In this document: positions 3,469-47,291 of the stretch, one piece after another
Numbering within the stretch: position 1 is the first letter of the stretch
How the letters are laid out: the number at the start of each line of letters is the position of its first letter
NCBI GenBank assembly: GCA_025453445.1
Contig: JALOQJ010000006.1
Coordinates: 2,308 to 66,307, forward strand
Reading direction: 5' to 3'
Source: Candidatus Omnitrophota bacterium
GTDB taxonomy: Bacteria; Omnitrophota; Gorgyraeia; Gygaellales; Profunditerraquicolaceae
DNA length: 64,000 nucleotides
Notes under the pieces: generated by a model
The model's input: only the letters and a program-made list of their open reading frames with translations
What the model was told of the DNA's origin: nothing
Databases searched by the model: none
Translations under genes and position numbers: made by a program

Positions 3469-3482
3469 TCTAAAAAACTGTT

Positions 3483-3612
3483 AAATCCCAAATTACAATA
3501 CACAAATCACAAACAATACTACAATCACAATACCAAAGTTTAATTTTTCGTTTGGAATTTTGGTAATTTGGTATTGGGATTTGTTTGTAATTTGGAATTT
3601 GTGATTTGGGAT
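3483..3612. repeat. ~130-bp imperfect AT-rich palindrome (caaat/atttg repeat family, copy B) between convergent genes; likely bidirectional terminator or MITE-like element
   Basis: Left arm aaatcccaaattacaatacacaaatcacaaacaa vs right arm ttgtttgtaatttggaatttgtgatttgggattt; inner arms caataccaaag/tttggtattg around centre tttaatttttcg. Confidence 0.75.
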
Positions 3613-6600
3613 TTAGTCTAGATATATGTCTATTCTTTTTATGAGGCGTGACCTTATTTGTTCAGCGTAAGGCGAAGGTATGGTGTCCGAGTGTATTTCT
3701 ACTGACAAGCCATTTTTGTCAGCGAATAAGATTTTCTTGGGAGAAACTTTATTTTTCCCAAAGGTATTACATATTTTTGGGTTATGGTATATTACCTGTA
3801 CTTTACTTAAGAAGTTAAAGCTATAGGTTTTATCTTTTTTCGTAAAGAGCCAACCAACAAGCTGAGGATTGAATTTCAGATTAAGCTGATTGTGATTGTT
3901 TAGGAAAAATGGCTGCCTGCCAAGGTTCATTATCAGCCAAATCTGTAGGAATTCAGCAGTAGATCCGGAAAGCCGCGCTACAAAACCGTTGCCATGCAGA
4001 TTTTTATCCGGGAAAGCACTGCTTGTGATAAATGAAGAATTTTCCAGTACGCTGCGGCCGTATACTGTGGGCTTTAATAAAGGGATAAGTACATTTTTAA
4101 AATCTGAGTAAAATTCTTCCGAAAGCCCATGTTTTAAAATTTCCAGTATATATTTATATTCCATATGTAGCCAAATGGATTCGTTTTCCAGCCAGCCGGG
4201 GGTAAATACTTTGCACCTGCCAATTTCTTCGGGCATATCCTTTAAAGAAGCCGTTACTTTATACATCTTTAACTTTTTATCGTAAAGCGGGCTGCTTTTT
4301 ACTGCCTGATAAAGATTTTTAGCTTCAATAGCATTATTGCTTAAACGCAGAGCATGCATTTGTGATTCCAAAAAGAAGGGGATTTTTACTTGCGAAAATT
4401 TTGTCGGCCGGATATAACGGTTATCCAGCGGATCGTATTCTGTAACAGTATTAATAAAATACGCGTAATACATGCCTTCTTTTTTGTTAAATGCTTTAGC
4501 CAGGCCGAAGTCGATTTTAGCCTGCGCCTTATTCAAGAATTCGATTAATTCTCCAGCAGAAACTTCTATTTCTTTCCCGGAAAAGCCCAATAAGGTATCT
4601 TTACGAAAAGCTTCTTTTAAGGCAGTGGCTTTATCCCAATAAATATAGTCTTTGTCCGGAGAATTACTGTCAGTATGTTCCTGAATTATGCCTTTAAGGG
4701 TAGTTAGGAAGCCGCAGATTTCCTTAGTTAAAGATATTTTATCAATGGCAGTTTTTTCTAAGGCAGTTTTGATAGTAATAAGCAGCCTTTTTAATTCAAA
4801 AGTTTCGCACGTAGAAGAGCCGAAAAGAGCAGGCAGGCCGTTTAAGGCATCATACCAGTTGGGTTTATTGGCTTCCATTTCAATACCCACCCCAAAAGGA
4901 TCGAGTGAGGCGAGCTTATTTACAGCCAGGCAAAATAATTTATTCACAAGATTAGTCTGGTAAATTTCTCCTTCGCCGCAGCCAGACCGCATTTTATTGG
5001 GGAAGTGAATCCGTTTTTTAATCAGGTCTTTTTTATGTGCATCTAAAGTAACTGAATTTAACTGGCGGGGTAAGCCGTTATAGAGGGTATATTTTTCGTT
5101 TCTTGGGCGGACAACTTCGCCATTATCAAAATAGGTAAATACTTTTTTGTTAAAGAAAAGTTCTTTTAACTTCTCCGGGTATATAGATAGGTAATTTTCC
5201 AGTAAATCAAGGTTGTATGCCCAGTGGTCAGTCCAGAAGCCTTCGCCATGTTCAGCCTGCTGGATTTTAAGGCACAAGGGAATTAACAAATTAAGAAAAT
5301 CATCGTAAGGAATGTTTAGTTCAAGGTTATTTTTCTGAATAAAAAGGATTAAATTACCGGGTGTAAAAGGCCTCTTCAGGTAAGTGCTAAGTTTTTCAAT
5401 GGTTGTTGAGTCCATAAGGCCTTTTAAAAATGAATTTAGTTTAACCGTATTATCCAAAGCAAAGCTGACGCCTTTAATTACCAGGGGATTAAAACCGTCT
5501 GTTTGCAGAAGATTAAAGAAAGTAATGATATTTTCGTCTTCAATTTCAGGGTTAAACCAGACATCCATACGGCGGTTCTGATTTACATCGCGGTAATTGC
5601 CGTTTCCCTGAGAAAAATACGATGGTTGTATCTGGAATCTGTTATAGTCTCTTTCCAGGTCGCCGTGTTTTCTAGAGTAAATATAAAGAACCGACTTTTT
5701 TCCACCAGATTCAAATACTATAGGATAGCCGCCGCGTATAATATTATCAAGATAAGTCTGGCGGGTGTAGAGGTTGAATTCTTGAGAGCCGGTTTGCGTA
5801 TCAATATCATCTTGCAGCCCGTTAATAATTAATTTATTAGCCGTTCTTTTTTTGGCCAAATATCCGGATTTAATAATTTTAGGAACGAGCCTATTTAGTG
5901 TTGCTTCATTATGCATATAGCCGGAGAGGGAGTAGAAAATTTTTTCTTCTCCCGGTTTAAGCTGGAAATTAGCAGCCATGAATCCGCAGGGGGTTTTATT
6001 ATCGGTAAGTTCATTTTTTGCAGCGATAAAATTATTTTCACTAATAAATTCATAAGGACAGGAAAAGTCAGTTACCGGGCCAAAGATAGATTGAGGACTA
6101 ACAATAGGCTTTATGATCTTTGGAACTTTTTTTTCATAATGGAAAGCCAGATAAAAGTTACCTTCATCAAGATGGATCACTTCAGGCTTATCAGCAGGAT
6201 CTACGGCTAATTTATAAAAAGGAACATTTTGTTTAAGGTTGTTTACGGTCATCCATGCTTCCAGTGTCCGGCTGAGCTCTTTAAGCAGCCAATGATTCAT
6301 TCCAAAAGGAACAATTTGCGGGAGCCCGTCAAGAAACTGTATTTTTTTTGCTGTTTTAGCGGTATTTTTTACGCTGATTATTCTTACTAATGCGGCATAA
6401 GAATCATCGGGAACGGTGAAATATTCAACATTGATTTTAAGCCCAAGTGTAGCATTAGTTTCTTCAAGCTTTAAATCATACGATGAAATCTTCATTTGGT
6501 TGCTAAGTTTAAAGCCTAAATTCACAAAGCCGTTATGGAATGGTTCGTAGAATATATTTTTTTTACTTCCCGAAGAGACTTTAATAAAAGTGCGGAAACC

Positions 6601-31028: not shown

Positions 31029-31104
31029 GCCGGCATAGCTCAGTTGGTAGAGCGTCTGTTTTGTAAACAGATGGTCGGGGGTTCGATTCCTCTTGCCGGC
31101 TCCA
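31029..31104 (+). tRNA. tRNA-Thr (anticodon TGT), CCA encoded
   Basis: Acceptor gccggca/tgccggc, anticodon stem tctgt/acaga with loop ttTGTaa, T arm ggggg-ttcgatt-cctct, 3' TCCA. Confidence 0.85.
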
Positions 31105-31126
31105 TTATATATAAGAAATAGCCATG

Positions 31127-31240
31127 CTAAATTCTAAACTCGAAATCCGAAATTCTAAACAAATGCAAACGGATTAATTTAGAAAATTAAGATTTAGATT
31201 TAGTTTAGGATTTAGATATTAGAATTTAGGATTTGTTTTT
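31127..31240. repeat. AT-rich imperfect palindrome (caaat/atttg repeat family, diverged copy C) between tRNA-Thr and tRNA-Tyr
   Basis: Left arm ctaaattctaaactcgaaatccgaaattctaaacaaatgcaaac vs right arm gatttagatttagtttaggatttagatattagaatttaggatttgttt; shares aaacaaatcctaaatt with copy A. Confidence 0.6.
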
Positions 31241-31245
31241 AATAG

Positions 31246-31326
31246 GGCAGGTACCCAAGTGGCCAAAGGGGGCAGACTGTAAATCTGTTGCACTTGTGCT
31301 TCAGAGGTTCGAATCCTCTCCTGCCC
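31246..31326 (+). tRNA. tRNA-Tyr (anticodon GTA), long variable arm, no encoded CCA
   Basis: Acceptor gggcagg/cctgccc, anticodon stem gcaga/tctgt with loop ctGTAaa, long variable arm tgcacttgtgc, T arm gaggttcgaatcctc. Confidence 0.85.
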
Positions 31327-31406
31327 ATTTAAATTTCCCCGACAAGGGAAATTTAAATGGCACTAAAGCGAGCGTTAAACGGCCCGACAAGGGCCGTAGC
31401 GAGCGT
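31327..31406 (+). other. structured tRNA-operon spacer: two hairpins sharing a CCCGACAAGGG core
   Basis: Hairpin 1 ttaaatttccc-cgacaa-gggaaatttaa; hairpin 2 ggcacta-aagcgagcgttaaacggcc-cgacaa-gggccgtagcgagcg-tagtgcc with direct repeat agcgagcgt. Confidence 0.5.
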
Positions 31407-31457
31407 AGTGCCTAGACTAAAAAGCTACAAGTAAAATTTTAATAGCACTGAAAAAAT

Positions 31458-31528
31458 GCGGGAGTAGTTCAGTGGTAGAACAATAGCCTTCCAAGCTATA
31501 TATGGGGGTTCGATTCCCCTCTCCCGCT
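31458..31528 (+). tRNA. tRNA-Gly (anticodon TCC), no encoded CCA
   Basis: Acceptor gcgggag/ctcccgc, anticodon stem atagc/gctat with loop ctTCCaa, T arm ggggg-ttcgatt-cccct. Confidence 0.85.
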
Positions 31529-31529
31529 C

Positions 31530-31556
31530 TGATTTTTTCGCGAAGCGAAAAAATCA
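31530..31556 (+). terminator. perfect palindromic hairpin flanked by A/T runs (bidirectional intrinsic terminator-like) after the tRNA cluster
   Basis: gattttttcgc-gaa-gcgaaaaaatc (11-bp stem). Confidence 0.6.
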
Positions 31557-31664
31557 TCCCGAGCTGCAATGTTTTTGTGCAGTGCGAGGGATAAACAGAC
31601 GCGAAGCGAAAAAATCATCCCGAGTTACAATGTTTTTATTTAGTGCAAGGGACAAAGAATCATG
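31539..31664 (+). repeat. two tandem ~63-bp direct repeats (~85% identical), each with a cgcgaagcg(a)6 motif and an atcccgag...gagggat-type hairpin, in the leader of the thyA-like gene
   Basis: Unit 1 31539-31601 cgcgaagcgaaaaaatcatcccgagctgcaatgtttttgtgcagtgcgaggga...; unit 2 31602-31664 cgcgaagcgaaaaaatcatcccgagttacaatgtttttatttagtgcaaggga... Confidence 0.7.
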
Positions 31665-31677
31665 AAAGGAACCCCTT

Positions 31678-32442
31678 ATGGAAAGAGAATTCTTAGAGCC
31701 GGTTTTCATCGAAGCATTTGATGTAGACGATGCATGGTTCCAATGCCTGTCTGCAATCCTCGATAAAGGCCATGTTTACATGATTACCCGCGGCAGCTAC
31801 GAGGGGCAAAAACGGCTGGAATTTGATTTTGCGGTAGTGAGGATAAAAAAACCATCGCATCAGATTATTCCAATAATACCCGAAGGAATGAGTATCCCGG
31901 CGCCTACGGATATGGATTATATCCAAGGTTACCTTGGATATCTACTTACAGGGGCAAAAACCGATACCGAAGATTATACTTATGGCGAGCGCCTTGTAGG
32001 CAGGCTGCAGGATCCCGGGGCAATGGTTAAAAACATGCCGCTCAACGTTAATCAGGTAGAAGAAGTAATAAAAATTTATAAGGATAAAGGTTTCGGCACT
32101 AATCAGGCTACCATGGAAATCGGCATGCCGTCGGATATACGATTGGCTGATCCGCCATGCCTGAGAATTATCGATACACGTATTCGTTACGGAAAACTAC
32201 ACTTCATTTTATATTTCCGTTCCTGGGATTTATGGGGTGGATTTCCTTCAAACCTTGGAGGGCTGCAACTGGTAAAGCAATACATGGCCGAAGAAATCGG
32301 CGTTGAAGATGGAGAAATTATTGCTGTCAGTAAAGGTTTGCATCTTTACGAGTACAGCTGGGATTTGGCAAAAATAAGGACTAATAAAGTAAATCCCGCA
32401 GCATTAAAAGACGTTACAGCAAAAGAGGTGAAAACTAGATGA
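31678..32442 (+). CDS. divergent thymidylate synthase (ThyA) family protein; catalytic Cys present, PCH His replaced (PCL)
   Basis: ADPPCLRIIDTRIRYGKLHFILYFRSWDLWGGFPSNLGGLQLVKQYMA aligns with ThyA [46 protein letters not shown]; 254 aa. Confidence 0.65.
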   Translation: MEREFLEPVFIEAFDVDDAWFQCLSAILDKGHVYMITRGSYEGQKRLEFDFAVVRIKKPSHQIIPIIPEGMSIPAPTDMDYIQGYLGYLLTGAKTDTEDYTYGERLVGRLQDPGAMVKNMPLNVNQVEEVIKIYKDKGFGTNQATMEIGMPSDIRLADPPCLRIIDTRIRYGKLHFILYFRSWDLWGGFPSNLGGLQLVKQYMAEEIGVEDGEIIAVSKGLHLYEYSWDLAKIRTNKVNPAALKDVTAKEVKTR

Positions 32443-32957: not shown

Positions 32958-33947
32958 ATGAACATTTCTATAATAGGCGACGGAGGATGGGGTACTACCT
33001 TAGCGATACTTTTGTCAAAAAAAGGCTATCCAGTTACGCTTTGGGGCGCGTTTAAAGAATACACGGACTACCTGAATAAAAAAAGAGTGAATTCAAAATT
33101 CCTGCCCGGAATAAAAATTCCCGCAGGGATTAACATTACACACGACTTAAATGAAGCGCTGCGTGATAAAGAATTAATTGTTCTGGCTGTACCATCGCAA
33201 TATTTACGTAAGGTGATCCGGGAATTTAAAAAAACCGGCTATCCTAAAAAAAGTATTTACTTGAGCGTTACCAAAGGAATCGAGATAAGCACTCTTAAAA
33301 GAATTTCAGAAATAATCAAAGAAGAATTGGGTCCGGTAAAAACAGCTGTTCTTTCAGGGCCGACAATTGCCCATGAGGTGGCTGCGGGCAAACCGACTAC
33401 CGCTGTTATCGCTTCAAAGAATGCAGTTGTCAGAAAACGCTTGCAGGATATTTTTATCACTAAGAGATTCAGGATTTACACTAATGATGATGTAATTGGA
33501 GTGGAATTAGGGGGCAGCTTGAAGAATGTAATTGCCATAGCCTGCGGAATTTCAGACGGCCTGGGTTTTGGAGCAAACACAAAAGCAGCATTGCTTTCCC
33601 GCGGCCTGGCAGAAATTTCCCGGCTGGGCATGAAGATGGGAGCTAAAACTTCGACATTCAGCGGCATCAGCGGCTTAGGAGACCTTGTAACTACCTGCAT
33701 CAGTCAATATAGCCGCAATAGGTTTGTTGGAGAACAGATCGGTAAAGGCAGGAAGTTGAGTGAAATTAAATCCCATATGCAGATGGTTGCCGAAGGAGTG
33801 CCGACAACGCAGTCTGCATATCAGCTAAGCCTGCGTTACAAAGTAAGCATGCCGATTACAAAAGAAATATACGCTGTTCTTTATAAAAATAAATCCGCGC
33901 AACAGGCAGTTAAGGATTTAATGACTAGAAAAAAGAAAGAGGAATAA
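32958..33947 (+). CDS. gpsA: NAD(P)H-dependent glycerol-3-phosphate dehydrogenase
   Basis: ISIIGDGGWGTTLA Rossmann N-terminus and GpsA-specific central motifs; 329 aa. Confidence 0.9.
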   Translation: MNISIIGDGGWGTTLAILLSKKGYPVTLWGAFKEYTDYLNKKRVNSKFLPGIKIPAGINITHDLNEALRDKELIVLAVPSQYLRKVIREFKKTGYPKKSIYLSVTKGIEISTLKRISEIIKEELGPVKTAVLSGPTIAHEVAAGKPTTAVIASKNAVVRKRLQDIFITKRFRIYTNDDVIGVELGGSLKNVIAIACGISDGLGFGANTKAALLSRGLAEISRLGMKMGAKTSTFSGISGLGDLVTTCISQYSRNRFVGEQIGKGRKLSEIKSHMQMVAEGVPTTQSAYQLSLRYKVSMPITKEIYAVLYKNKSAQQAVKDLMTRKKKEE

Positions 33948-34045
33948 AAATATTGAGATGCATGCGGGGGCGTGCCCCGTTGCATCTCCACAACTAAAAA
34001 TATTGAGATGCATGCGGGGGCGTGCCCCGTTGCATCTCCACAATG
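33946..34045 (+). repeat. perfect tandem duplication of a 50-bp unit (2 copies, differing only in the last 2 nt), each containing a strong 8+5-bp hairpin; starts at gpsA stop, ends 3 nt before tRNA-Pro
   Basis: aaaaatattgagatgcatgcgggggcgtgccccgttgcatctccacaa x2; hairpin gagatgca-tgc-ggggg-cgtg-ccccg-t-tgcatctc. Confidence 0.85.
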
Positions 34046-37514: not shown

Positions 37515-38377
37515 TGCGCAAATTCCTGCTGATTCCGCTGTTTTTTGTTTTGGCGAATTTTATCTATGCCGAAGATTCGCCTAAGCCAACTGCCTGGGTG
37601 AATGATTATGCGCAAGTTATCTCCAGCGAGTACAGGGAAAAAATAAATTCCTTGATTCAAGAATTAGAGCGAAAAACCTCGGCGGAAGTTTTCGTAGTTA
37701 CTAAAGAATCAATTGCTCCTTATGACGAAAAATCTTATGCGCGAATGCTCTTTGACAGCTGGAAACCGGGGAAGATCGGTAAAGATAATGGTGTGTTGAT
37801 ATTACTGGCAGTAAAAGAACGGCGCTGGCGCATTGAAACCGGCTATGGTGTTGAAGGAATTTTACCTGATTCTCTTTGCGGGCAAATCGGCCGTAATTAC
37901 ATTGTTCCTTATTTTAAAAACGGCCAATACTCAGAGGGCCTTTATTACGGGGTAGAGGCGATTGCAAAGGTTATTTCAGGTGAAAAACTTGCATTACCTA
38001 CAGGATCAAGAAACAAAGCTAAACCACCTGTAGCCTTTTTTGTTTTCTTCGGATTTTTCTTTTTCTTATTGTGGAATTTACCCTGGCCGATTTTTATCGG
38101 CCTGCCTTTTACTGCGATTTTCACTACTGCCTTTTGGCAACTTTCACCTGTTGCAGGAATATCTGTAATTTGCGGATACATTGCTTCTATGGCAATCAGG
38201 TATATGTATTGGTCGAAACTTCCGCCTGAAAAACGCAAAAACTTTTTCAGCGTTCAAACATACGGTGGCAGGTTTTCTTCCGGAGGATTTGGGGGTAGCT
38301 CTGGAGGCGGAGGAGGCGGATTTTCAGGAGGAGGCGGAGGAGGCGGCGGTGGCGGAGGTTCAGGAGGCGGATTTTAA
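37514..38377 (+). CDS. TPM-domain (YgcG-like) membrane protein with Gly-rich C-terminal tail
   Basis: Signal/TM, TPM phosphatase-like domain, TM helices, C-terminal GGGGS-type low complexity. Confidence 0.8.
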   Translation: MRKFLLIPLFFVLANFIYAEDSPKPTAWVNDYAQVISSEYREKINSLIQELERKTSAEVFVVTKESIAPYDEKSYARMLFDSWKPGKIGKDNGVLILLAVKERRWRIETGYGVEGILPDSLCGQIGRNYIVPYFKNGQYSEGLYYGVEAIAKVISGEKLALPTGSRNKAKPPVAFFVFFGFFFFLLWNLPWPIFIGLPFTAIFTTAFWQLSPVAGISVICGYIASMAIRYMYWSKLPPEKRKNFFSVQTYGGRFSSGGFGGSSGGGGGGFSGGGGGGGGGGGSGGGF

Positions 38378-44537: not shown

Positions 44538-47291
44538 ATGAATGATATACCTACCCGCTATGATCCAAGGAAAACTGAAGATAAGTGGTATAAGCTTTGG
44601 GAAGATGAAAATTTATTTGCTGCAAAACCCAACTCAGACAAGAAACCATTCTGCGTAGTTATCCCGCCGCCAAATGTTACCGGTATCTTACACATGGGCC
44701 ATGCCCTGAATAATACTATTCAGGACATACTTATCCGCTACCATAGAATGCTCGGAGACGAATCACTTTGGATGCCCGGGACTGACCATGCTGGTATTGC
44801 TACTCAAAATGTAGTCGAGAAAGCTATTGCCAAAGAAGGATTAAAGCGGCAGGATTTAGGCAGGGAAAAATTTATTCAGCGGGTTTGGCTTTGGAGAGAA
44901 CAATATGGTTCAACGATCATCCATCAATTAAAAAAACTGGGCGCATCCTGCGATTGGCAGCGCCTGCGCTTTACCATGGATGAAGAATACTCAAAATCTG
45001 TAATTGATGTTTTTGTAAAATTATATGAAAAAGGCCTGATTTACCGCGGCAGTTACATTATTAACTGGTGCCCGCGCTGCCAGACTGCATTATCTGATGA
45101 AGAAGCTCCGCATCACGAATTACAGAGTAATTTATATTATTTACGCTATCCCCTGAAAGATAATCCTCAAGAATTCATAATAGTAGCAACTACACGGCCG
45201 GAAACCATGCTGGGCGACACTGCTGTGGCAGTTAATCCTAAAGATAGACGCTATAAGCATCTCGTCGGAAAAATTTTAATTCTGCCGTTAGTAAAGCGGG
45301 AAATTAGAATTATTGCTGACCCAATGGTGGATATGGAATTCGGTACTGGAGCGGTCAAAGTTACGCCTGCGCACGATCCCAATGATTATGCCTTAGGCAA
45401 AAAGCACGGGTTGGAATTTGTTAATGTAATGCATCCTGACGGTAAAATGAATGAATTTGCCGGCGACTATCAGGATATGGATAGATTTGAAGCCAGAGAA
45501 GTAATCTTAGAAGATTTATTAGAACAGAAACTCCTGGAAAAAATCACTCCTCATACTTTATCTGCGGGGCACTGCTACCGCTGCCACACAATAATCGAGC
45601 CCTATTTATCAAAGCAATGGTTTGTAAAAATGAAACCCTTGGCAAAACCGGCAATCGAAGCAGTTAAAAAGGGAAAAATTAAATTCCATCCTGATCGCTG
45701 GACTAAGGTCTATTTGAACTGGATGAAAAATATTCAGGATTGGTGTATCTCCCGTCAAATCTGGTGGGGGCACCGCCTGCCTGTATACTACTGTAAAAAC
45801 TGCCAGCAGTCAGCTATCAGCAAACAGCAATCAGCTAAAAACGAGTTGACAGCTGAAAGCAGAAAGCTGAAAGCTGAAGAAGGAGTCATTGTATCAAAAA
45901 TTAAACCAGCTAAGTGCCCTTATTGCGGATCTAACGAGATCTATCAAGACGAAGATGTCCTGGATACTTGGTTTTCTTCTTGGCTTTGGCCATTTGCCAC
46001 TTTTTATTGGCCTTTTCAGCAATCAGCTAAAAACGAGCTGACAGCTGAAAGCAACAAGCTGAAAGCTGAATTAGAATATTTTTACCCCACCTCAGTGCTT
46101 GTAACAGCCCCTGAAATTATCTTTTTCTGGGTAGCAAGAATGATTATGTCCGGCTTTGAGTTTATGGGTAAACTGCCCTTTAAAGACGTCTATATCCATG
46201 GCACAGTGCGCGATATCGAAGGTAAAAAAATGTCCAAGTCTCTCGGTAATATCATTGATCCGCTGGAAATTATCAATAAATACGGCACAGATGCCCTACG
46301 CTTCAGCCTGATTTCGATTACCGCAGAAGGCCAGGACGTTTTTCTCTCCAAAGAAAGATTTGAGCAAGGGAGAAACTTTGCCAATAAAATCTGGAATGCC
46401 TCAAGGTTTATTTTAATGAATTTAGAATCACCTCAAGACAAAGCCGATCTCTGCGTATTTTTTAAAAAAGAAAATCTCAGTTTAGTAAACCGTTGGATCT
46501 TAAGCCGTTTTTATTCTACGCTTAAAGCAATCAATAAAGACCTTGATAATTTTAAATTTAATGAAGCGGCTAACTTACTTTACGGATTTTTCTGGCATGA
46601 ATTCTGCGATTGGTATCTGGAACTAATCAAACCGGAAATAAAAACCAAGCAAAACCAGCTGGTGATGTATAAAATTTTGGAGAAATTCTTACGTGTAGCA
46701 CACCCATTTATGCCTTTTATCAGCGAAGAAATCTGGCATTTAATTAGAAACGAACAAGCTTCAAGCATTATGCTGCAACCATGGCCGCACATACAAGAGG
46801 AAATAATCGATAAAAAAGCGGAAATTGAGACAGAATTATTATTTAAAATTATCAGCGAAATCAGAAATCTGCGCATAGCAATCGAAGTAAAGCCCGAGCA
46901 AAGGGTAAATGTATCGCTTTATCCGCATACAAAAGCTATTGCCAGCCTCTTGGAGCAAAATTCTGCCTTATTGATTAATCTGGCAAAGATTGAAAAATTG
47001 GAATTGCTGAAAAAAAACTTAAGGCCTGATGCGACAATTACCTCAGTAGCGGAAGATATAGATATTTACCTGCACTTCAGCGGCCTCTTGGATATTGCCG
47101 CCGAGCAACAGAAAATCAAAGACAAAATTTCGCTGCTTGAAAAAAGCTTAAACGGTAAAAACAGCAGGTTATCTAATAAAGAATTTATGAAAAATGCTCC
47201 GGAAGATATCATTGTTAAGGAAAAAGAAAGCCGCGACAAGCTAATTGCTGAAATAAAACGTCTGGAGAAGATGCAAAATGAGCTGTGTTAA
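44538..47291 (+). CDS. valS: valyl-tRNA synthetase, carrying two in-frame ~18-aa repeat insertions
   Basis: HMGH and KMSKS class I motifs, anticodon-binding and C-terminal coiled coil; 917 aa. Confidence 0.95.
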   Translation: MNDIPTRYDPRKTEDKWYKLWEDENLFAAKPNSDKKPFCVVIPPPNVTGILHMGHALNNTIQDILIRYHRMLGDESLWMPGTDHAGIATQNVVEKAIAKEGLKRQDLGREKFIQRVWLWREQYGSTIIHQLKKLGASCDWQRLRFTMDEEYSKSVIDVFVKLYEKGLIYRGSYIINWCPRCQTALSDEEAPHHELQSNLYYLRYPLKDNPQEFIIVATTRPETMLGDTAVAVNPKDRRYKHLVGKILILPLVKREIRIIADPMVDMEFGTGAVKVTPAHDPNDYALGKKHGLEFVNVMHPDGKMNEFAGDYQDMDRFEAREVILEDLLEQKLLEKITPHTLSAGHCYRCHTIIEPYLSKQWFVKMKPLAKPAIEAVKKGKIKFHPDRWTKVYLNWMKNIQDWCISRQIWWGHRLPVYYCKNCQQSAISKQQSAKNELTAESRKLKAEEGVIVSKIKPAKCPYCGSNEIYQDEDVLDTWFSSWLWPFATFYWPFQQSAKNELTAESNKLKAELEYFYPTSVLVTAPEIIFFWVARMIMSGFEFMGKLPFKDVYIHGTVRDIEGKKMSKSLGNIIDPLEIINKYGTDALRFSLISITAEGQDVFLSKERFEQGRNFANKIWNASRFILMNLESPQDKADLCVFFKKENLSLVNRWILSRFYSTLKAINKDLDNFKFNEAANLLYGFFWHEFCDWYLELIKPEIKTKQNQLVMYKILEKFLRVAHPFMPFISEEIWHLIRNEQASSIMLQPWPHIQEEIIDKKAEIETELLFKIISEIRNLRIAIEVKPEQRVNVSLYPHTKAIASLLEQNSALLINLAKIEKLELLKKNLRPDATITSVAEDIDIYLHFSGLLDIAAEQQKIKDKISLLEKSLNGKNSRLSNKEFMKNAPEDIIVKEKESRDKLIAEIKRLEKMQNELC
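45824..45877 (+). repeat. 54-nt intragenic repeat copy 1 in valS (encodes QQSAKNELTAESRKLKAE)
   Basis: cagcaatcagctaaaaacgagttgacagctgaaagcagaaagctgaaagctgaa; ~51/54 identical to copy 2. Confidence 0.85.
46019..46072 (+). repeat. 54-nt intragenic repeat copy 2 in valS (encodes QQSAKNELTAESNKLKAE)
   Basis: cagcaatcagctaaaaacgagctgacagctgaaagcaacaagctgaaagctgaa. Confidence 0.85.

Follow-up and report, generated by a model that had tools for sequence, protein, structure and literature searches.

The window analysed in this study, a stretch of 64,000 nt from contig JALOQJ010000006.1 of a Candidatus Omnitrophota bacterium, carries a valS gene for valine--tRNA ligase (ValRS) that holds two near-identical, in-frame copies of a 54-nt direct repeat. 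The contig with valS is 74,463 nt long, and the gene order leuA-like/valS/nadC/uvrB is kept in relatives. The gene product is 100% identical to NCBI entry MCU0651742.1 ("MAG: valine--tRNA ligase, Candidatus Omnitrophica"; MAG, metagenome-assembled genome), and the Pfam domains on record for the protein (P0001) are synthetase families only. Its nearest solved structure is the ValRS of T. thermophilus (1GAX), which is also the best PDB match of the AlphaFold2 (AF2) model (predicted local distance difference test, pLDDT, 73.6). The features of valS and of two related intergenic regions are listed in Table 1. Handles with L and P denote loci and proteins, respectively, most of them from other genomes.

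Table 1. Coordinates of the repeat elements and related features in the window (position 1 is the first nucleotide of the 64,000 nt).
Feature	Position	Strand	Remarks
valS (valine--tRNA ligase, 917 aa), host gene	44538..47291	+	list of open reading frames (ORF)
Site-1 element, full quasi-palindrome between CKNC and CPYC	45804..45876	+	RNAfold and Tandem Repeats Finder (TRF)
Extra 21 nt, site 1 only	45804..45824	+	three left-arm heptamers, encoding QQSAISK
Copy 1 of the 54-nt direct repeat	45825..45878	+	residues 430-447, QQSAKNELTAESRKLKAE
Site-1 hairpin loop AAAAACG	45837..45843	+	RNAfold structure
Codon AGA (Arg) at would-be TGA position, copy 1	45861..45863	+	
Site-2 hairpin	46013..46051	+	loop AAAAACG at 46029-46035
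Copy 2 of the 54-nt direct repeat	46017..46070	+	residues 494-511, QQSAKNELTAESNKLKAE; between WP and LEYFYPTSVLVT
Codon AAC (Asn) at would-be TGA position, copy 2	46053..46055	+	
Intergenic hairpin of inverted heptamer arrays, AAATCCC/AAATCAC vs TTTGGRA	3478..3620	.	between convergent ORFs
Intergenic heptamer-array hairpin, AAATYCK/AATTTAG units	31120..31240	.	between two tRNA genes; z = -2.7

The two copies are identical at 51 of 54 bases, lie 192 nt (64 codons) apart from start to start and both begin at valS codon boundaries. Both encode the peptide QQSAKNELTAES(R/N)KLKAE; the three differences consist of a synonymous TTG/CTG change and an AGA/AAC change that turns R into N. Copy 1 lies between CKNC (residues 419-422) and CPYC (460-463), a place referred to below as site 1, and copy 2 follows WP (491-492) and precedes LEYFYPTSVLVT (site 2). 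The conserved ValRS motifs are intact on both sides of each insert. Sub-patterns of 36 and 31 nt (up to 3 mismatches) match only the two valS places in the 64 kb and found no match in 100 dinucleotide-preserving shuffles, which excludes chance. The initial annotation of this DNA had reported a 54-nt repeat with two in-frame copies at these two places in ValRS; the repeat is real and its places in the protein are as described, with the nucleotide coordinates 1-2 nt out of register. Its "editing" label for site 1 was wrong, since the editing (CP1) domain comprises about residues 190-340 and the Cys knuckle (CKNC/CPYC) is outside it.

The internal repetition of the 54-mer, also pointed out at that stage, proved to be a strict 7-nt periodicity in an inverted pair of arrays that forms a hairpin. 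TRF found period-7 arrays at 45804-45835 (unit CAGCAAT, 4.6 copies), 45847-45878 (unit TGAAAGC, 4.6 copies) and 46036-46070 (5.0 copies). The two arrays of an insert are roughly complementary, and each insert is therefore an imperfect palindrome with a left arm (CAGCWRT)n, the loop AAAAACG and a right arm (CTGAAAG)n, starting with CAGC... and ending with ...CTGAA. The full version at site 1 has a left arm of about five CAGCWRT heptamers, the loop and a right arm of about five CTGAAAG-type heptamers; it measures about 73-81 nt, of which 54 nt form the core common to both sites. In copy 2 the left arm is cut down to two heptamers. The 21-nt indel between the sites equals three heptamers and seven codons, which is the smallest, and indeed the only, slippage step that preserves the reading frame. 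RNAfold predicted -30.9 kcal/mol for 45798-45884 (z = -5.0, with 0 of 200 shuffles equally stable) and -19.8 kcal/mol for 46011-46076 (z = -3.2, with 2 of 200 shuffles equally stable).

The coding behavior of the arrays follows from their unit length. Because 7 is coprime to 3, a heptamer array gives the same periodic heptapeptide in any phase. A pure (CTGAAAG)3 array contains a TGA in every frame and its sense reading is LKAES(stop)K, so that one base change per 21 nt removes the TGA. A change of this kind is present in every in-frame copy. AGA and AAC at the would-be TGA codon make up two of the three differences between copies 1 and 2; the same codon is CGA in the valS loci L001, L002 and L003, and TTA or GCA in the in-frame arrays of other proteins. 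The antisense reading of the array, LSAFSFQ, is hydrophobic and free of stops, and it was found in membrane proteins (L024, L056, L057) in all three cases with a recognisable host protein. Comparison of the window with L001, L002 and L003 revealed no codon-position pattern of conservation within the inserts: third-codon identity is 0.63-0.79 in the inserts and 0.44-0.53 in the conserved flanking codons, and the insert peptide itself is not conserved among orthologues. Better conservation of third positions in the inserts than in the flanks indicates a constraint at the DNA level and not at the protein level.

To place the inserts among relatives, 120 Omnitrophota ValRS orthologues (67-82% identical to the window ValRS) were aligned. 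Length variation peaks at the two loops in question, with a standard deviation of 11 aa at site 1 and 8 aa at site 2. Further length hot spots are found at residues 207-213 (hs3) and then at 736-743 and 633-648 (the latter referred to as hs633). Many lineages show an empty state, with 1-3 aa at site 1 and KESED at site 2 (DNA example L132). Both copies are thus insertions relative to the canonical T. thermophilus enzyme (1GAX) as well as to many orthologues with empty sites, in agreement with the first description. At least six unrelated low-complexity families, scattered over the tree, occupy the filled sites: family A (SAIS.QPSA...LKAESRKLKAE, the window's own family), family B (KSQIPNPKSQ), family C (GLSPxGTVP), family D (EFIVHS...TMNNE), family E (HIAYRIS...DKRLAISDKQ) and family F (SKLQA...ACSLQ). 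A-rich loops like AAAAACG also occur in families A, D, E and F.

The inserts had been expected to be specific to one lineage, and the alignment argues against this. The closest relative, P0002 (82% identity), carries family B at site 1 and family C at site 2 and no A-type peptide. Family A is found at site 1 in P0056 and at site 2 in P0083, P0026, P0041 and P0003; the A-type inserts of P0056, P0083 and P0003 were verified at the DNA level. Since the same loops are filled by at least six families, they are recurrent hot spots and do not record a single lineage-specific event. The site-1 element of the window is homologous to the one at site 1 of L003 (the gene of P0056), with the same arm end and loop (TCAGCTAAAAACGA): the 14-nt arm end and the loop match exactly, against an identity of only about 69% between the two genes. 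This homologous element rules out a site-1 insert confined to the window lineage. The site-2 element is homologous to that at site 2 of L001 and L002. A 20-mer match elsewhere in L003, at about position 5370, is ordinary LemA gene sequence and was set aside as a chance match. L003 and L130 (a contig that overlaps the window) both come from Joint Genome Institute (JGI) sample 3300037461; the window organism and the P0056 organism are present in one metagenome.

At the DNA level, inserts from families A, C and E consist of heptamer arrays or short palindromes, with folds significantly more stable than those of shuffled sequences. Hairpin z-scores were -6.3 for L003 site 1, -4.0 for L001 site 2, -3.7 and -6.0 for L004 sites 1 and 2 (other heptamers), and -2.4 and -2.5 for L128 sites 1 and 2 (C-type). 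One arm only, and no hairpin, was found in L002 sites 1 and 2, L003 site 2, L126, L127 and the B-type inserts. Alignment of filled sites with the empty site of L132 showed no target-site motif or microhomology beyond 3-nt overlaps (CAG or GAA), and no terminal inverted repeats apart from the arrays themselves. The third hot spot, where the editing domain begins, is flanked by YYLRYP and VATTRPE and holds the genome's own element: an E-type hairpin in L004 (10620-10680) and a different heptamer array in L001 (about residues 207-240). Period-7 arrays were also observed in nadC of relatives (L001 13643-13679, L002 13298-13507, L004 13363-13587), at the N-terminus of a leuA-like gene (L001 8332-8374) and at the C-terminus of a PALP enzyme (L001 4406-4436). 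In-frame heptamer arrays in Omnitrophota are therefore not confined to valS.

Sites within one gene tend to carry related inserts. A common peptide of at least 5 aa at sites 1 and 2 was found in 9 of 60 proteins (15%), compared to 0.8% of cross-protein pairs. Peptide sharing between hs3 and site 2 was 11% within a protein and 1.5% across proteins, and between site 2 and hs633 it was 5% and 0.7%, respectively. The DNA of L003 sites 1 and 2 matches at 36 of 39 positions, including an idiosyncratic ending. The valS gene of L004 contains three E-type hairpins, at sites 1 and 2 and hs3. That of L128 contains three C-type elements, and its hs3 copy (1002-1030) is the exact reverse complement (30/30) of its site-2 copy. 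The L128 element matches its own reverse complement at only 22 of 29 positions, which means that the inverted orientation is real.

The search for further copies in this genome covered 74 kb. This comprises the window and a further 9.9 kb from L130; the two records coincide over 5,572 nt with no mismatch. The initial annotation had likened the repeat to Rickettsia palindromic elements (RPE). No copy was found in the 74 kb beyond the two in valS. Likewise, the valS variants of L004 and L128 were not found in their own flanks (11 kb and 4.4 kb, respectively). When the 30-aa site-1 segment was compared by HMMER to 1.84 billion representative proteins, P0121 was the sole significant protein (E = 5.5e-11), with six matched stretches. 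This protein of 454 aa (L131, 1639-3003) consists of a short N-terminal segment followed by Pro-rich low-complexity sequence, and no Pfam domain was found in it. Its gene contains in-phase A-type units of the form (ATCAGCN)x4 - loop - (AGCCGAN)x3-4, five of them detected by DNA scan and a sixth in the protein; no such units were found elsewhere in its 9.3-kb locus. The number of arm units differs among L001, L002, L003 and P0121.

The right-arm motif is widespread. Scanning one genome per species gave at least 120 loci from many phyla (the 120 listed contain 124 matches). Arrays of CTGAAAG/CTTTCAG were found in Acidobacteriota, Planctomycetota, Bacteroidota, Cyanobacteria, Chloroflexota, Desulfobacterota and the Candidate Phyla Radiation (CPR) (L005-L124), and some genomes have them on several contigs (e.g., L028, L037 and L040 of RUG12186). 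L033 is an intergenic hairpin of an Omnitrophica genome with both arm types of the valS element. In-frame arrays were identified in LeuRS, UvrA, a histidine kinase and protein F of a type II secretion system (T2SS); coding status was taken from individually inspected, Pfam-confirmed cases such as these, as ORF cover is a poor guide in GC-rich genomes. Omnitrophota loci often contain period-7 arrays, between genes as well as within them, and the arrays in the flanks are mostly built from unit types other than those of the local valS. Scanning of metagenomes for arm end, loop and right arm returned one unrelated AT-rich array (L125) and missed even the contig of L003; the relevant samples were outside the collection and this result is no evidence of absence. 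A word-indexed search with the two insert peptides concatenated gave two word-sharing candidates, neither of which scored, and is uninformative on distant copies.

Other repeats were noted in the window. The intergenic hairpin at 3478-3620 folds at -50.4 kcal/mol (z = -8.0), and its AAATCCC unit type recurs in other Omnitrophota, where it is read in frame as KSQIPNPKSQ at valS site 1. More intergenic inverted-array hairpins are located at 19-49 in the window and at 13416-13552 in L130; the unit types of these intergenic hairpins (AAATCCC/AAATCAC, AATTTAG, AAATTCG) are not those of valS. Two perfect 49-nt tandem copies with a spacing of 50 nt lie at 33945-34043, directly after the ORF at 32958..33947. 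Each copy has a GC-rich hairpin (GAGATGCATGCGGGGGCGTGCCCCGTTGCATCTC), and folding of the region gave -51.8 kcal/mol (z = -6.2). A terminator that was duplicated may lie behind the repeat, or it may be a further small repeat element. Downstream of a three-tRNA cluster (31029-31528) and upstream of an ORF starting at 31678, a 61-nt unit is repeated 1.9 times (31539-31656, 84-87% identity), with a weak fold (z = -2.0) and no Rfam match. About six copies of a 9-nt unit (GGAGGCGGA) at 38303-38358 probably encode a Gly-rich stretch.

The repeat, its reading frame and its hairpin built from heptamers are established, as are the recurrent hot spots, the resemblance of inserts within a gene and the conservation of DNA and not of protein. 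We consider it somewhat probable that they reflect a tolerated in-frame heptamer-array quasi-palindrome that was copied locally between permissive loops and has no dedicated function; the mechanism of copying, its direction and the neutrality of the inserts are what we infer. The two 54-nt copies would be two in-frame instances of one small quasi-palindromic element. Heptamer-array hairpins, common in Omnitrophota DNA, would arise and change in length by replication slippage, and would be copied to new places mainly over short distances, probably when nearby repeats undergo template switching or gene conversion (some transposition mechanism is also possible). Within genes such arrays may survive only in residue-tolerant loops, and only if the reading stays open. 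In ValRS the permissive places would be the Cys4 knuckle loop (site 1), the WP...FYP linker (site 2) and a few others. Presumably the sequence of one site recently overwrote that of the other, or both were homogenised, and a 21-nt (three-heptamer) slippage and three point changes would have followed. Translation of the element would yield a hydrophilic, probably flexible helical appendage that is tolerated by the enzyme.

Two considerations favor copying over short range. Intergenic DNA of the same 74 kb is a far larger tolerated target and contains no copy, a distribution that random dispersal followed by selection fits poorly. Independent slippage, in turn, cannot recreate the shared non-repetitive core. 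Short-range copying would depend steeply on distance, like RecA-independent recombination. The earlier suggestion of a "duplicated indel" can be retained insofar as the near-identity is most likely due to copying between sites; what was copied is a structured repeat element and not an arbitrary sequence.

Several points weigh against this explanation. Coverage of the genome was 74 kb, and a dispersed family may exist elsewhere in it. The 14-nt arm end and loop shared without change with L003 fit a maintained or mobile family better than a purely local origin, and simple gene conversion does not readily explain the exact inverted copy in L128. In L126, L127 and L128 the sharing between sites consists of the family and short stretches only, and some z-scores are not significant. 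The preference of the copies for valS has no explanation in this scheme, and the neutrality of the inserts is assumed. Finally, the ValRS tree of Omnitrophota is poorly resolved, which makes the number of independent gains uncertain.

A broader proposal is put forward tentatively. Heptamer-array quasi-palindromes might constitute an unrecognised coding-compatible repeat class that favors spread in cis, inside one gene and in either orientation, and seeds peptide segments time and again in the same loops of essential enzymes. The examples behind it are ValRS (up to five loops), LeuRS, UvrA and DnaE, from Omnitrophota and other phyla.

Among the alternatives to local copying, a dispersed mobile element (RPE-like, or like a miniature inverted-repeat transposable element (MITE) or a repetitive extragenic palindrome (REP)), moved by a trans-acting enzyme and inserted twice independently into valS from one active master variant, is a possibility that we regard as rather doubtful. 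The element behaves as a discrete unit: the same arm end and loop occur at site 1 of the window and of L003 in divergent host genes, a family can turn up at several sites as well as in unrelated proteins and phyla, L128 has its exact inverted copy, CTGAAAG arrays lie on several contigs of genomes such as RUG12186, and L033 represents an intergenic copy that combines both arm types. Yet two copies are found within 250 nt and no other in 74 kb, of which roughly 6 kb (estimated) is intergenic, and clustering in one gene is seen again in L004, L128 and L131. Only the trivial 3-nt overlaps could serve as target-site duplications, there are no separate terminal inverted repeats, and no associated transposase was identified in the 74 kb of genome. 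In addition, each genome has other unit types in the intergenic arrays close to its valS.

Adaptation at the protein level, in which two charged helical peptides were selected as ValRS appendages (a tRNA-binding surface or a helix pair), appears improbable. AF2 predicted helices in both inserts (420-432 and 439-445 at site 1, 503-511 at site 2), and the peptides are rich in Lys and Glu. Both inserts are in the catalytic body and, presumably, near the tRNA-contacting regions of class Ia synthetases. The helices are of low confidence, however, with pLDDT of about 33-76 in the inserts and below 50 at site 2. Orthologues display unrelated peptides (KSQIPNPKSQ, GLSPQGTVP, TMNNEPSTMN, DKRLAISDKQ) or none at the same sites, the nearest relative lacks the A-type peptide, and in the inserts third codon positions are as conserved as first and second positions, as expected from conservation of DNA.

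It is also quite improbable that the hairpins act in the valS mRNA as cis-regulatory pause, processing or stability elements. Significant hairpins are present here and in relatives although the sequences differ, a feature consistent with such a role. Against it stand the empty sites of many orthologues and the one-armed inserts that form no hairpin (L002 sites 1 and 2, L003 site 2, B-type). An Rfam search gave no match at either valS insert, and a terminator scan detected no terminator-like site overlapping the inserts and no U-tract on the + strand. An intein or intron was rejected as well, as the inserts of 18-25 aa contain no splicing motifs and have no Rfam match.

Independent local growth, i.e., expansion of each array by slippage from similar seeds with convergent similarity, is very unlikely. 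Heptamer arrays are prone to slippage (PMC4679880, PMC4692102), a 21-nt indel distinguishes the two copies, and the arrays vary widely from one relative to the next; slippage cannot, however, yield the identical loop AAAAACGAG, the irregular unit YTGACAG, the same order of variants and 51 of 54 identical bases. An assembly artefact (collapsed or chimeric repeat) is highly unlikely: the gene comes from a single metagenome-assembled contig and a 54-nt repeat exceeds typical assembly k-mers, but both copies are in frame with highly conserved ValRS sequence between them, independently assembled loci from other samples and pipelines (L003, L004, L128, L131) show the same layout, and another part of the contig is reproduced without mismatch in L130.

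Essential genes that harbor selfish or slippage-born DNA are a classic curiosity, for which RPEs and the idea of a "birth of protein segments" are the best-known case. This locus and its orthologues add a second system, with a different mechanism, from a phylum that has received little study. Its elements are tiny, their units belong to the class of long simple repeats most common in bacteria, and their coding behavior comes down to the arithmetic of 7 against 3. Their distribution is a natural experiment on which enzyme loops tolerate insertions and how repeats spread over short range. If the coding-compatible class proposed above is real, it would represent a general and ongoing birth of protein segments, distinct from RPEs, REPs and MITEs. 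In practical terms, the inserts inflate length variation and may mislead alignments, phylogenies and domain predictions of marker genes like valS in MAG studies, and internal repeats of 50-80 nt can break short-read assemblies. The general pattern across orthologues is of more interest than the single locus. In the literature searched we found no description of such elements for Omnitrophota or of heptamer-array hairpins inside genes.

The element shares features with several known systems. REPs, bacterial interspersed mosaic elements (BIME) and MITEs are likewise small hairpin-capable palindromes, and the intergenic relatives found here sit between convergent genes as REPs do (PMC3733652; PMC10969869). 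REPs are 20-40 bp long, extragenic, marked by a GTAG or CGTC tag and linked to REP-associated tyrosine transposases (RAYT) (PMC3733652). The valS element, in contrast, is intragenic, 54-81 nt long and ends with CAGC.../...CTGAA without a tag, and was not assigned to the REPs. Nor does it belong to the MITEs, which have terminal inverted repeats and target-site duplications; comparison with L132 showed neither at the valS inserts. PARCEL (palindromic amphipathic repeat coding elements) are also coding repeats with dyad symmetry in the DNA and intragenomic shuffling, and they are defined by an amphipathic 25-residue motif in long tandem tracts of proteins of unknown function (PMC2996958). The valS inserts lack such a motif, occur as one unit per site in loops of a housekeeping enzyme and fall outside this group. 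The small dispersed repeats (SDR) of Nostoc, reportedly described by Elhai et al. in 2008, are said to be 21-27 nt long, to form hairpins in some cases, to lie often within heptamer arrays and to be recognised as insertions relative to orthologous sequences. They are reportedly cyanobacterial, mostly intergenic and dispersed in hundreds of copies. To our knowledge, no report describes SDRs that recur in frame in the same loops of a single enzyme.

Two further known systems resemble the element. Heptanucleotide simple sequence repeats (SSR), such as the short tandemly repeated repetitive (STRR) sequences of cyanobacteria, TAACTGA of Beggiatoaceae and GGGAATC of Xanthomonas and Nostoc, consist of tandem 7-nt units like the valS arrays. 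Heptanucleotide arrays are the most abundant class of long SSR in bacteria, with polymerase slippage as the explanation; their copy number is hypervariable, inverted pairs of arrays have been noted in Xanthomonas, and the logic of frame and stop codons has already been discussed for TAACTGA (PMC4679880, PMC4692102). The valS element has the same head-to-tail 7-nt arrays and slippage-like variation in copy number. It differs from the described heptamer SSRs, which are overwhelmingly intergenic and mostly direct, in that two inverted arrays form one translated hairpin unit within a gene. RPEs measure 100-150 bp, and an aminoacyl-tRNA synthetase subunit, PheT, is known with a 63-84 bp RPE-7-like insert (PMC1779305). 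The likeness to RPEs drawn in the initial annotation is sound as regards hairpin repeats in frame in essential genes and in intergenic DNA (L033), a tolerated peptide and lineage-specific proliferation. It does not extend to size, composition and host: RPEs have many interspersed copies per genome, contain no tandem heptamers and are restricted to Rickettsiales, whereas the valS element is shorter (54-81 nt), has arms of heptamer arrays, has its copies clustered in one gene within the 74 kb covered and resides in Omnitrophota, a comparison made by these features and without scoring against RPE hidden Markov models (HMM). The valS element is best described as one that works like an RPE and yet is made of the building blocks of the known heptanucleotide SSR class.

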